Of a stretch of DNA of 64,000 nucleotides, positions 2,308-42,099 are shown piece by piece. Made by a program: the position numbers and the translations under genes. Below the pieces are notes generated by a model. The model saw only the letters and a program-made list of their open reading frames with translations, ran no database searches and was not told where the DNA came from. Source of the stretch: Escherichia coli (GTDB taxonomy: Bacteria > Pseudomonadota > Gammaproteobacteria > Enterobacterales > Enterobacteriaceae); NCBI RefSeq assembly GCF_030013595.1, contig NZ_CP122768.1; one strand, 5' to 3'. The number at the start of each line of letters is the position of its first letter. Position 1 is the first letter of the stretch.

Positions 2308-2883
2308 TTATTTAATAAACGTAAACGCCGTGGTTACCCGCTTCACGCCGCTTACCCGGCTGGCAATATCTGCCGCCGCTTTCGCTTCACGTTCAGTCAC
2401 TAGTCCCATCAGGAACACTTCACCGTTTTCGGTGGTCACTTTCACGTTGGACGATTTCACCAGGTCGCTGGTTAAGAGCTGCGAACGCACTTTGGTGGTG
2501 ATCCACGTATCGTTAGACGCTTCGCCCAGACCAATCGGCTGGCCCTGACGAATCTCGTTATACACTTCGTTGGCACCGTCTACGCCCATAGCAATCTGTT
2601 TGGCGCGAGCCGAAAGTTCAGCGTTTGGTGACTGCCCAACCAGCAGCACTTTGCCCTGATAGGCCGTTACATTAATGCGCGCTTCTTTCTTAATCTGTTC
2701 GTCTTTCGACAATGCGCTGTTCACGCGCACTTCCAGGGTACCATCGTCCACCTGGGTGCCGACACTGCGTGGGTCAGTTGCGGCTTTGGTACCTACAGCA
2801 GCGGTACCCACTACGGCAGCGGCAACACAACCTTGCAACAGCAGCGCGGAAAGAAGGACTGCGATTGGCGATAATGCCTTCAT
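2308..2883 (-). CDS. dolP: Outer-membrane BON-domain lipoprotein DolP/YraP (191 aa)
   Basis: ORF 2308..2883; N-terminal lipoprotein signal MKALSPIAVLLSALLLQGC; two BON-like repeats. Confidence 0.85.
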   Translation of the reverse strand: MKALSPIAVLLSALLLQGCVAAAVVGTAAVGTKAATDPRSVGTQVDDGTLEVRVNSALSKDEQIKKEARINVTAYQGKVLLVGQSPNAELSARAKQIAMGVDGANEVYNEIRQGQPIGLGEASNDTWITTKVRSQLLTSDLVKSSNVKVTTENGEVFLMGLVTEREAKAAADIASRVSGVKRVTTAFTFIK

Positions 2884-2892
2884 GTATTCTCC

Positions 2893-3483
2893 TTAAACAT
2901 CCTGGTGAGGGAAAAGCGTGTTATCGATCAGATCGCACAGGCAATTTACCGTCAGCATATGCATTTCCTGAATGCGAGCACTACGATGCGAAGGAATGCG
3001 GATCTCCACATCCTGTGGCCCTAACAAACCTGCAAGTTCACCGCCGTCATAGCCGGTTAATGCCACAATGGTCATATCACGCGTAACGGCAGCTTCTACC
3101 GCTTTTACAATATCGCGGCTGTTGCCACGGGTGGAAATGGCTAACAATACATCTCCCGCATGACCCAGCGCCCGCACCTGTTTTGCATACACTTCATCAT
3201 GTAAGCGATCGTTGGCAATCGCCGTTAAGACAACATTATCAGTATTTAGTGCAATGGCAGGTAAGCTGGGCCGCTCCGTTTCGAAACGGTTGATCATGCT
3301 GGCAGCAAAATGCTGTGCATTGGCAGCGGAAGTTCCATTACCACAACAGAGGATTTTGTTGCCATTGAGCAGAGACTGAACCAGCGTCATGGCTGCACGG
3401 GAGATGGCATCCGGAAGCGCCTCTGCCGCCGCAATTTGAGTTTGAATGCTTTCAGTGAAGCAAGCTTTAATTCTTTCTTGCAC
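2893..3483 (-). CDS. diaA: DnaA initiator-associating protein DiaA (SIS domain, 196 aa)
   Basis: ORF 2893..3483; SIS/phosphoheptose-isomerase-like sequence; synteny. Confidence 0.85.
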
Positions 3484-3502
3484 GCTAATCCTTAAACCTT
3501 AA

Positions 3503-3898
3503 TTATGAGTGGTCATTAAAGGCATCCTTAATCCACTCAACCTCATTCCCGGTGAAGGCTACCACATCGAACCGGCAATCCACAGTATCAAAACTCCCAT
3601 TATGACGCGCGAGCCACAAGCGGGCAGTCTGTAATAATTTGTGTTGTTTGCTGCGGGTCACACTGGCTGCCGCGCCGCCATAAAGCGCAGAGCGGCGGTA
3701 ACGCACCTCGACAAAAACGGTGGTCCGGCCTTCACGCATTATCAGATCGATCTCGCCGCCACGCTCGTTCACGTTAGCGGCGATAAACCGCAGTCCTTTG
3801 CCTTCCAGCCAGCGACGCGCTTGTGCTTCCCACGCATCGCCGGTCTGTTTGGTGGTTAACTGGCGGGGACTACCTGACCTTGTTGGTACTGTAGCCAT
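3503..3898 (-). CDS. yraN: UPF0102 protein YraN (131 aa)
   Basis: ORF 3503..3898; synteny between diaA and lpoA; overlaps 3' end of lpoA. Confidence 0.8.
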
Positions 3899-5892
3899 GA
3901 TAACTTCCTGTTAATCACGCAATCCGGGTTAGCCGTCAGACTTCCGGTATTACCGTTGATTTCAAAACCCTGAACCTGGCGCATTTGTGAGAAATGATTT
4001 GCCAACGACCAGGCATCGACGCCCATCGCATACATGCGAGCCAGCGAATAATCGTTGTTCACCGCGCTGAGCGCCTGCTGCATTAACGGCAGATTACCGC
4101 CTGCCAGCATCGGGATTTCGCTGTACTGCAAGCCTTCCATCTCCAGACGGAAATCCGGGCCTGCGGTGCCTTGTGCGCTGCGGGAACTGGCGTACAGCGT
4201 TGCACCGCTCTGGCTACCGTTACGCATGGCGATCATCGGTTTGATAAAAGCGATTTCACCCGGCGTTGCCACAATGTACACCGCATCGACACGACCGCCA
4301 TTATTGGTGAACTGGTCATCGGTTGGCGTGGTTTGCAGCGTTGGATTGTTGGTCGTCATGCCGGAGTCGGTTGTCGCTCTGGGAGTAATCGGGCTACCCG
4401 TTAAAGCAATACCAGAACCGCCGTTAACACCCGCGCGTAATTCGCTGGTGGAACCAAATTTTTGTTGCAGAACGGTGCCGCCACCCAGTTTCTGCCACTC
4501 TTGCGCAAACGCATTGGCTACGCGATCGCCCAATGAACTGCGTGGGATCAGCACCAGCGGCGCTTGTTTACCCTGGTCACGAATATGACGCGCTGCATCG
4601 CGCGCTTCGTCTTCCGGTGAAAGCGCGAAGTAACAAATATTGACGCGGTTTTCGATGTTCTCCGGCTGGTTCAGTGCCAGCACGTTCAGCGGAGTGTTGC
4701 TCTTCAGCAACTCTTCAACGTTATTTTTCAGCAACGGACCGACCACAATACTCGCGCCATCCTGCTGAACCTGGCTTAAGATCTGGCTAAGTGGTTGTGA
4801 TGAGGTATCGTAGATTTTCAGCTCTGCGGATGGATTTGCGGGTGCGCTTACCGCTGCGGTGCTTGTCGCCGGGGCGCTTACAGGCACCGGCTGGGCCGCA
4901 GGTTGTTCACCGGTCAGATCGCTAACCGAGGCTTGTGCCGGGCTGGCAACGCCATCCACGGTTTGCGGCTGAGGTTGTTCTGCTACGTCTGCGGCAGGTG
5001 CGGCAGCTACCTGAGCCGCCACTGGCTGAGTGCCGATATTTTTTGCCGCTTCAAAGCCTTGCTGAATAGTGCGACCAAATACCGCTGCCTGGCCATTCAG
5101 TGGCAACAGCAGGGCGATTTTGTTGGTCGATGCGGGTTTAAACGCTTTTACGTTAACCAACTGCGTTGGCAGCATTTTCGCGCCCGGGTTGTTCGGATAA
5201 CGTTTCTGCCAGTCGGCGATCCCGGCTTTCATCATGTCGGGATCGTTACGGTTATCAAACCAGATGCGCTGCAGATCCAGCCAGCCTTGCAGAATATTTT
5301 CGTCGGCATTGATCACCAGCGTATTCGCCTGTTCCTGAGTCATGGAGGAGAGCGCCTGCCAGGTGGCGTCAATATTCTGCTGCTTTTCTTTCGCGCCGAG
5401 CAGCGGTTCCTGAGCAATTAACGCGCGCAGTAAATCAATGGAAGGACGCCCCTGGCTGGCATCGATTTTTGCCTGCCAGTAACGCGCTTGCTGGTTTTGT
5501 TCTAAATCTGCAGGTGTGATTTTCGCCAGCAAGTTTTGCGCGCCAGCAAAATCTTTCTGCGCCAGTTTAATCTCTGCCGCCAGCAGTGTTTTCTCGCGAC
5601 GCTGAGAATCGTTCAGTTCTTGCGGTAGTTGGTTAAACAACTCCACCGCCTGTCCGGTTTTACCTTCTTTCACCAGTGCACGAATGGCGAGTAATTGCCA
5701 GTTGATCCTGGTATCATCAGAACTTTGCTGCATCTGTTGCAGGTAAAAGGCAGAATCAGCCTGCGCCGTGCCCTGCATATAAGCAGTGGACTGATCGGGA
5801 GTATGGGTGCCACAACCGGCGAAAATCAGGGCTGCCAGAACAACAGGCAGACAACGCGCGGCTTTCAAACGAGAAAATGTTGAGGGTACCAT
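3856..5892 (-). CDS. lpoA: Penicillin-binding protein activator LpoA (678 aa)
   Basis: ORF track 3856..5922; start trimmed to [27 protein letters not shown] (lipoprotein signal); TPR-like N-domain and periplasmic-binding-like C-domain. Confidence 0.85.
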
Positions 5893-39052: not shown

Positions 39053-40363
39053 ATGTTTGATTCGACTTTAAATCCGTTATGGCAGCGTTACATCCTCGCC
39101 GTTCAGGAGGAGGTAAAACCGGCGCTGGGGTGTACTGAACCGATTTCACTGGCGCTGGCAGCGGCGGTTGCTGCGGCTGAACTGGAAGGTCCGGTTGAAC
39201 GTGTAGAAGCCTGGGTTTCGCCAAATCTGATGAAGAACGGTCTGGGCGTCACCGTTCCCGGCACGGGAATGGTGGGGCTGCCGATTGCGGCGGCGCTGGG
39301 AGCGTTAGGTGGAAATGCTAACGCCGGGCTGGAAGTGCTGAAAGATGCAACTGCGCAGGCAATTGCCGATGCCAAAGCACTGCTGGCGGCGGGGAAAGTC
39401 TCAGTTAAGATCCAGGAACCTTGCGATGAAATCCTCTTCTCACGCGCCAAAGTCTGGAACGGTGAGAAGTGGGCGTGTGTCACCATTGTCGGCGGGCATA
39501 CCAACATTGTGCATATTGAGACGCACAATGGTGTGGTGTTTACCCAGCAGGCGTGTGTGACAGAGGGCGAGCAAGAGTCGCCGCTGACGGTGCTTTCCAG
39601 GACGACGCTGGCTGAGATCCTGAAGTTCGTCAATGAAGTCCCGTTTGCGGCGATCCGCTTTATTCTCGATTCTGCGAAGTTAAATTGTGCGTTATCGCAG
39701 GAAGGTTTGAGCGGTAACTGGGGGCTGCATATTGGTGCGACGCTGGAAAAACAGTGCGCGCGCGGTTTGCTGGCGAAAGATCTCTCTTCATCCATTGTGA
39801 TTCGTACCAGCGCGGCATCCGATGCGCGTATGGGCGGCGCTACGCTTCCGGCAATGAGTAACTCCGGCTCGGGTAACCAGGGGATCACTGCAACAATGCC
39901 TGTGGTGGTGGTAGCAGAACACTTCGGGGCCGATGATGAACGGCTGGCGCGAGCGCTGATGCTTTCGCATTTGAGCGCGATTTACATCCATAACCAGTTA
40001 CCGCGTTTGTCTGCGCTTTGTGCCGCAACGACCGCAGCAATGGGGGCCGCCGCCGGGATGGCATGGCTGGTGGATGGGCGTTATGAAACCATCTCGATGG
40101 CGATCAGCAGTATGATCGGCGATGTCAGCGGCATGATTTGCGATGGTGCGTCGAACAGCTGCGCGATGAAGGTTTCGACCAGTGCTTCGGCTGCGTGGAA
40201 AGCGGTGTTAATGGCGCTGGATGATACCGCAGTGACCGGCAATGAAGGGATTGTGGCGCATGATGTTGAGCAGTCGATTGCCAACCTGTGTGCGTTAGCA
40301 AGCCATTCGATGCAGCAAACGGATCGGCAGATTATCGAGATTATGGCGAGCAAGGCCAGATAA
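39053..40363 (+). CDS. yhaM: L-cysteine desulfidase YhaM (CyuA; 436 aa)
   Basis: ORF 39053..40363; UPF0597 family; synteny. Confidence 0.85.
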
Positions 40364-40444
40364 ACGCCAGGTTTTGGGTAACGTGCCGGATGCGATGCTG
40401 GCTGAACTGCACCCCAAATGTTGGACATAATCTGACATCTGAAG

Positions 40445-40975
40445 GTGCAGTTTATGAAACATTCATTTGAAGTAAAACTTGCCGCTGTAAATCATTACCT
40501 GGCTGGTCATGCAGGCATCATTTCTACGGCAAAACTCTTTCAACTTTCTCACACCAGCCTCTCACACTGGATTAATCTTTTTCTTCTTCACGGTCCTCGT
40601 GCACTGGATTGCAGACACAAGCGTAGCTATTCTCCTGAAGATAAACTTTGCGTGGTTCTTTATGCTCTCGGGCATTCTGAGTCTCTACCCCGGGTAGCTG
40701 CCCGGTTTAACATTCCCAGCCACAACACGGTTAAAAACTGGATAAAAGGCTACCGCAAATCTGGTAATGAGGCCTTTATCAGGCGCAGGAAGGAGAAAAG
40801 CATGACCCGTTCTGATGATACCCATGAAAACGAGGCAAACATGACGCCGGAAGAGATGAAGAATGAGCTGCGTTATCTTCGCGCAGAAAATGCATATCTG
40901 AAAGCCATGCAGGAGCATCTCCTGGAAAAAAAGCGCCAGGAGCTGGAGAAAAAACGAAAGTCATCCGGAGCCTGA
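40445..40975 (+). CDS. IS3-family transposase OrfA (HTH, leucine-zipper region; 176 aa)
   Basis: ORF 40445..40975; in-frame A_AAA_AAG slippery heptamer at 40927-40933 near the 3' end. Confidence 0.85.
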   Translation: MQFMKHSFEVKLAAVNHYLAGHAGIISTAKLFQLSHTSLSHWINLFLLHGPRALDCRHKRSYSPEDKLCVVLYALGHSESLPRVAARFNIPSHNTVKNWIKGYRKSGNEAFIRRRKEKSMTRSDDTHENEANMTPEEMKNELRYLRAENAYLKAMQEHLLEKKRQELEKKRKSSGA

Positions 40976-41079
40976 GGTGCGGACACTGCCAGTCTGACCT
41001 GTTAAAGGCTGCAGGGCTGGCCAGAAGCACGCTGTACTACCAGCTGTCACTGCAGAAGGCTAAGGACAAGTATGCTGAT

Positions 41080-41928
<849 letters not shown>

Positions 41929-41931
41929 TCT

Positions 41932-42099
41932 TTACGCGGTAGCTTCATCCTCGGCTAAACGCGTTTCAGCATCCGCGACGATGGCTTCCAGCTCGCTCAA
42001 CATCTCTTCATAGCCAAAATTATTGGCGGTGCGAGCAGGTTCTTTCGCCACCACGGGCTTCACTGGCTGACGCTTTTTGGCCGATTTTTTACTCATCAT
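41932..42099 (-). CDS. yhaL: Small protein YhaL (about 54 aa; below ORF-track size cut-off)
   Basis: Manual reverse-complement translation MMSKKSAKKRQPVKPVVAKEPARTANNFGYEEMLSELEAIVADAETRLAEDEATA; position between yhaK and yhaM. Confidence 0.6.
   Translation of the reverse strand: MMSKKSAKKRQPVKPVVAKEPARTANNFGYEEMLSELEAIVADAETRLAEDEATA

Follow-up and report, generated by a model that had tools for sequence, protein, structure and literature searches.

In a window of 64,000 nucleotides from Escherichia coli (contig NZ_CP122768.1), two overlapping transposase reading frames meet at a run of adenines. The question raised by this locus is whether the heptamer found there, A_AAA_AAG at 40927–40933, serves as a programmed −1 frameshift site, to which element it belongs, and whether that element is likely to be still mobile. 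The element was identified from its sequence and anatomy as IS1397, a member of the IS150 group of the IS3 family, and it carries intact frames and catalytic residues at an insertion site that is polymorphic among strains. The heptamer is the already catalogued −1 frameshift site of IS1397, which makes the finding of an earlier, sequence-only reading of this DNA correct and ordinary. The overall account, in which an intact IS1397 would make its OrfAB transposase by a −1 slip at A_AAA_AAG, with presumed stimulators and probable activity, is given a probability of about 0.9. Its importance is small beyond the right annotation: the two ORFs should be entered as a single IS1397 transposase gene, with its −1 frameshift marked as programmed, rather than as a pair of genes or as a pseudogene.

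The complete insertion sequence spans 40403–41834 (1432 bp, + strand, as are all the genes, repeats, residues and RNA signals of the element described below) and has TG…CA ends. Megablast of 40403–41835 against 5426 complete E. coli genomes yielded full-length matches of up to 99.9% identity, all of them annotated as “IS3-like element IS1397 family transposase”, and this near-identity to the annotated IS1397 extends over the full 1432 bp. On the near-identical copies RefSeq gives a “programmed frameshift” and a two-piece joined CDS, with the same start and stop as found here. The left terminal inverted repeat (IRL, TGAACTGCACCCCAAATGTTGGACA, 40403–40427) matches the reverse complement of the right one (IRR, 41810–41834) at 21 of 25 positions. 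The criteria described for the IS150 subgroup include a D(57–60)D(35)E motif with a K six residues after the E, and a length of 1200–1400 bp (PMC5771124). The element in the window has two overlapping ORFs, the second of them in the −1 frame, an HTH in OrfA, a D(59)D(35)E + K signature, an in-phase AnG window in the overlap, TG…CA inverted repeats and a match to the NF033516 profile above its curated cut-off; its 1432 bp are marginally over the quoted range. Nucleotide sequence (99.9%), length, inverted repeats, OrfAB, target in the loop of a palindromic unit (PU) and duplication of 3–4 bp are all those of the IS1397 reference, and compared with other IS1397 copies, from which 2–38 nt separate it, only the location is different, in the rarely occupied cyuA–yhaL BIME.

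The adenine run that contains the heptamer extends over 40926–40932, in the context GG-AAAAAAA-G (…CTCCTGG-AAAAAAA-GCGCC…). Zero-frame codons counted from the ATG at 40454 read gaa (40925–40927), aaa (40928–40930) and aag (40931–40933), so the heptamer has the phase X_XXY_YYZ, as the sequence-only reading had stated. The last upstream stop of the −1 frame is at 40864–40866, and from 40867 this frame is open up to the TAA at 41800–41802; because orfA stops only at the TGA at 40973–40975, the two frames overlap by 109 nt. The stretch between 40933 and 41080 has no stop codon in the −1 frame. The earlier description of this frame as open through the first OrfB ATG to 41802 was right about the openness and wrong about the ATG: orfB has its first in-frame start codon, a GTG, at 41080 and its first in-frame ATG at 41200, and the ATG at 41072 belongs to a different frame.

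Taken by itself the heptamer is unremarkable: AAAAAAG occurs 19 times in the window, both strands counted, where 14.9 occurrences are expected. An in-phase heptamer within the overlap, which offers 34 in-phase positions, would be expected by chance only about 0.005 times. A_AAA_AAG is invariant in seven E. coli copies of IS1397 and in the related element of Pantoea SO10, and a chance origin was ruled out by phase, position and conservation together. Another AAAAAAG, at 41729–41735 inside orfB, is in phase 2 relative to the orfB frame and is therefore no candidate for a slip site.

The first frame, orfA (40454–40975), is preceded by an AAGGTG ribosome-binding site, starts at the same ATG as the RefSeq CDS and encodes a DNA-binding protein of 173 aa with an HTH (Pfam HTH_28, 9e-18; HTH_Tnp_1, HTH_29 and HTH_23). 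The orfB-frame part of OrfAB (40933–41802, with the frame open from 40867) contains an HTH_21 domain and the rve integrase core, or DDE domain (Pfam rve, 1.6e-21; rve_2; HTH_21). An in-silico fusion, in which 40454–40933 was read and translation resumed by re-reading from 40933, gave an OrfAB of 449 aa. It scored 387 bits against the NCBIfam profile NF033516 (IS3 family transposase, cut-off 160) and matched profile positions 1–369 in one stretch across the frame junction. The fusion is identical in every residue to the NCBI “IS1397 family transposase” that is found on 71 contigs, and database annotators therefore join the frames at the same heptamer. Both the profile match and this identity uphold the proposal that the heptamer joins OrfA to OrfB.

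When the fused protein was aligned with IS150 and four other relatives, the catalytic residues fell in invariant columns: the first D in WVTDITEF (41335–41337), the second D in LHSDQGW, 59 residues past it (41515–41517), the E in NAVMENFFG, a further 35 residues on (41623–41625), and the conserved K seven positions after the E (41644–41646). These are D135, D195, E231 and K238 of the orfB frame, which together form the D(59)D(35)E + K signature; the DDE domain claimed for the −1 frame is thus present with its full set of residues.

The surroundings of the element bear on its history. It is flanked by a 4-bp target-site duplication, TGGC, at 40399–40402 on the left and 41835–41838 on the right. 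The insertion lies in the BIME between cyuA (yhaM) and yhaL, where it splits a REP palindromic unit into a left half (GTGCCGGATGCGATGCTGGC, 40383–40402) and a right half (GCGTCTTATCTGGCCTAC, 41839–41856). Removal in silico of the IS and of one TGGC restores the palindromic unit GTGCCGGATGCGATGCTGGCGCGTCTTATCTGGCCTAC, which places the IS, with its TGGC duplication, in the loop of the palindrome. This is the target known for IS1397: all nine copies examined, at different loci, are in loops of palindromic units with duplications of 3–4 bp, and the titles of the papers by Bachellier, Clement and Hofnung that are cited in PMC1525189 present IS1397 as active in K-12 and PU-specific.

The empty site was found at a coverage of at least 80% in 5390 of the 5426 complete E. 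coli genomes (99%), and the left junction was covered to at least 80% in just four records. The junction aligns in one piece in only two of these records, E7-1N7, where its position is identical, and DETEC-P881, which is known from its match pattern only. In E7-1N7 (2601–4032 of the extracted locus) IS1397 has the same TGGC and differs by 33 nt (97.7% identity) from the copy in the window, whereas 2 nt are all that separate the latter from a copy at another locus; this suggests either that the loop received independent insertions or that the insertion is old and its copies have drifted apart. In IAI39 (2672–4103 of the extracted locus) IS1397 occupies the neighbouring palindromic unit, 71 bp away within this BIME, and is an independent insertion into the same cyuA–yhaL intergenic region; AR_0077 has a two-piece match pattern like that of IAI39 (match pattern only). 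A second palindromic unit lies next to the insertion in the window, at about 41890–41925. This intact REP unit gives an Rfam match to naRNA4 at 41893–41937 of 41.5 bits, under the gathering score of 59.5, which presumably reflects a REP-derived similarity.

Other copies of the element have fared differently. In ZJ3920 the copy lies downstream of the rrn 5S gene and lacks 1 nt, at the equivalent of window position 40600; that of the Nissle-type strain EcN_Sk, between yaeF and nlpE, lacks 5 nt, at the equivalent of 41017–41021. Both are annotated as pseudogenes. The variant class of about 98% identity that includes ZJ3920 was seen more often than any other among the sampled matches. The copy in the window, by contrast, is not the decayed relic against which the sequence-only reading had argued: its ends and target duplication are intact and its site is empty in 99% of the E. 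coli genomes. That it is intact and appears to have been recently mobile is well supported. Intact inverted repeats and TGGC, together with a site that 5390 of the 5426 genomes have empty, indicate that the insertion is recent and its element probably active.

The alternative that survives best is that the heptamer and both frames are intact and the copy is nevertheless silent, owing to missense changes, to the lack of a promoter or to repression by the host. A simple scan for sigma-70-like promoters found none in 40300–41950, and many E. coli genomes have only the fixed pseudogene copy. Against this, the OrfAB encoded here is the very protein deposited from the 71 contigs, a copy located between ygcP and ygcQ in another strain has the same DNA except for 2 nt, and the inverted repeats (21/25), the target duplication and the largely unoccupied site all speak for recent movement of this exact sequence type. 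A silent copy is thus judged unlikely, and the copy in the window is probably transposition-competent at present. An intact IS1397 at a rarely occupied REP site is a marker of a probably active REP-targeting element, with uses in strain typing and in judging genome stability.

As for the way in which the two frames are joined, ribosomes translating orfA would reach A_AAA_AAG with lysyl-tRNAs on AAA in the P site and AAG in the A site. A fraction of them would slip one base back, re-pair on AAA AAA and resume in the orfB frame from 40933, yielding the 449-aa OrfAB transposase with its HTH domain, a leucine-zipper-like region and the DDE core. Ribosomes that do not slip would end at 40973–40975 and release the 173-aa OrfA, a protein that acts as a regulator in related IS3-family elements. 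Help for the slip would probably come from two flanking signals, an SD-like GGAG 12 nt before it and a compact hairpin immediately after it. OrfAB would bind the TG…CA inverted repeats and insert the element in the loops of REP palindromic units, with duplication of 3–4 bp. We infer the slip itself, its efficiency and the role of both stimulators from the signals encoded in the DNA.

In some IS elements, RNA polymerase realigns on long stretches of A, and OrfAB could in principle be made mainly in this way: if the polymerase added one A within 40926–40932, the resulting A8 mRNA would encode the same …EKKAPG… fusion as a ribosomal slip. The run here has seven As, whereas about nine or more are required for efficient transcriptional realignment in E. 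coli. Moreover, the site is a canonical in-phase X_XXY_YYZ heptamer ending in G, and A6G is conserved in most relatives, which points to re-pairing of tRNA-Lys and not to run length as the conserved property. Sharma et al. (PMC4066793) also class the site as one of −1 PRF. Transcriptional slippage as the main source of OrfAB is therefore considered very improbable, and the ribosomal slip at 40927–40933 is retained. The least credible option is a slip at the second, weaker in-phase A run, G_AAA_AAA at 40948–40954, alone or in addition to the heptamer: although this run lies within the overlap, leads into the same open frame and has its like in the element of Pseudomonas endophytica, where G_AAA_AAA is the only such run and occupies the position of the IS1397 heptamer, re-pairing in the P site would need GAA, A_AAA_AAG far exceeds A_AAA sites of the tetramer type in efficiency (PMC4066793), and both the NCBI junction and the exactly matching protein use the first site. 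The junction peptide predicted for the first site is LLEKKAPGAGEK (…LLEKKAPGAG…), and that for the second run would read …QELEKKTKVIR…. The second run, which could be a minor slip site, is itself part of the second unit of a tandem peptide repeat, QEHLLEKKR/QELEKKR, at the OrfA C-terminus (40910–40960, CAGGAGC…AAAAAA twice).

There are two candidate stimulators, one on each side of the heptamer. The SD-like GGAG is at 40912–40915, separated by 12 nt from the second base of the heptamer, which falls within the range of 6–17 nt given in PMC4066793, and it is also found in the Pantoea SO10 relative. Downstream, where the sequence-only reading had proposed to look for a stem-loop, minimum-free-energy folding predicted a hairpin of 48 nt at 40933–40980 (−17.6 kcal/mol). 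Its inner part, 40937–40974, is a hairpin of 38 nt (CAGG…CCUG, −12.4 kcal/mol) that begins 3 nt past the heptamer. The 48-nt hairpin ranks in the top 1.4% of the 48-nt windows of IS1397 and retains −16.3 to −17.6 kcal/mol across seven natural copies; the folding z-score of the 104-nt region is only −1.9. Among these seven E. coli copies no compensatory changes were found in the hairpin, and some variants break pairs of the lower stem. The hairpin starts 0–3 nt past the heptamer, as against the 4–10 nt of the rule in PMC4066793, and its stimulatory role is uncertain because a ribosome positioned on the heptamer would already unwind much of the stem.

Other structures were considered for the same region. 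A branched fold of 103 nt (40942–41044, −31 kcal/mol, 8-nt spacer) was discarded, as an equally good fold is reached by 9% of the 103-nt windows and the pairs of this structure are disrupted in most natural variants. What looked like a covariation with the Pantoea SO10 element, U-A to G-C, was set aside, since the positions are non-homologous. Inspection by eye of the 80 nt downstream gave no pseudoknot partner for the hairpin loop, and no Rfam family matched at the frameshift site.

These signals agree with a published catalogue. In E. coli, A_AAA_AAG ranks in the top three heptamers for efficiency (PMC4066793), and in Table S4 of the same work (Sharma et al. 2014) the cluster A_AAA_AAG_5 is IS1397 orfA, marked as positive for both SD and structure. 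Table S8 reports the SD in 100% and the hairpin in 100% of the members of the IS1397 cluster, the hairpin being 38 nt in size, set off by a 3-nt spacer, with 4 bp in its first stem. According to a footnote, −1 PRF “can be safely inferred” for the cluster; it was inferred rather than demonstrated. GGAG and the 38-nt hairpin with its 3-nt spacer were found independently here and agree with Table S8, so that heptamer, upstream SD, hairpin and spacer are the same in the window copy as in the catalogue. The zero-frame product of IS1397 has 190 aa in PMC4066793 (Tables S6 and S8) and 173 aa here. A literature search on frameshifting in IS1397 gave nothing relevant.

The position of the signal was compared with that in eight plasmid-borne relatives, including IS150 (45–53% amino-acid identity), and in about 60 chromosomal ones, the whole set spanning 40–57% amino-acid identity. 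All eight plasmid-borne relatives and nearly all of the chromosomal ones have A_AAA_AAG or A_AAA_AAA in phase. In a search of one genome per species over 100,044 species, no relatives were found between about 57% and 97% identity; with no such intermediates, and with E. coli copies that vary too little, the IS1397 hairpin offers no covariation to be read. Nearly all the relatives have the heptamer at the codons for ENAYL-KK, followed by 6 nt and by a hairpin closed by GCCUUxGUUCA/UGAAyUAAGGC. RNAalifold applied to 40 such relatives gave nine pairs; compensatory changes occur in four of these, and hardly any pair is broken.

IS150 (insJ/insK) resembles IS1397 in having an orfA with HTH, an orfB with DDE, an A6G slip site and an OrfAB transposase, with identities of 46% for OrfAB and 51% for OrfB, and in both elements 83 nt separate the ENAYL codons from the (E/S)LR codons. 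For IS150, a −1 frameshift at A_AAA_AAG with a downstream stem-loop is attributed to Vogele et al. 1991 as cited in PMC5771124. Its heptamer lies at ENAYL-KK and is followed by 6 nt and by a 66-nt hairpin (GCCUUGGUUCA…UGAACUAAGGC), whose stem is common to the approximately 60 relatives; the IS150 hairpin is listed with 48 nt in PMC4066793, as compared with the 66 nt of the covariation-supported closing stem found here. IS1397, unlike IS150, reads ENAYLKAMQEHLLEKK and carries its heptamer 27 nt (nine codons) further downstream, a shift matched by a gap of nine residues in the OrfB-frame alignment. The positions homologous to both arms of the IS150 stem cannot pair in IS1397, which thus lacks the IS150-type signal of a heptamer at ENAYLKK with a GCCUUxGUUCA…UGAAyUAAGGC stem and has instead a shorter hairpin, 0–3 nt past the heptamer, together with the upstream SD-like GGAG. 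The 3′ arm of the IS1397 hairpin covers codons homologous to those of the old 3′ arm (S/E-L-R).

The displaced slip position is also found in the element of Pantoea SO10 (53% identity) and, as G_AAA_AAA, in that of P. endophytica, so the nearest relatives found appear to share it. The elements of P. endophytica and P. saliphila are without a canonical in-phase heptamer at ENAYLKK, and the latter has no obvious slippery run. The shift of the slip site in IS1397 is a modest variation within a known kind. We tentatively propose, with the odds somewhat against us, that the IS1397 lineage moved its recoding signal by 27 nt, losing the hairpin with the 6-nt spacer and gaining a short abutting hairpin and the GGAG. 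The displaced slip site would then be a small case of recoding-signal evolution: if the signals are functional, it would represent a natural turnover of frameshift stimulators, from a hairpin only to an SD plus a hairpin with a short spacer, and the moved signal could give a different OrfAB:OrfA ratio.

A similar combination of signals exists in IS911, which also has A_AAA_AAG, an upstream SD-like GGAG and a downstream structure; stimulation has been measured for IS911, whereas the stimulators of IS1397 are candidates. No IS cluster other than these two is scored positive for SD and hairpin alike (PMC4066793, Table S8). They differ in that IS911 is a member of a different IS3 subgroup, is unrelated in sequence and has a spacer of 6 nt in place of the 3 nt of IS1397 (PMC4066793).
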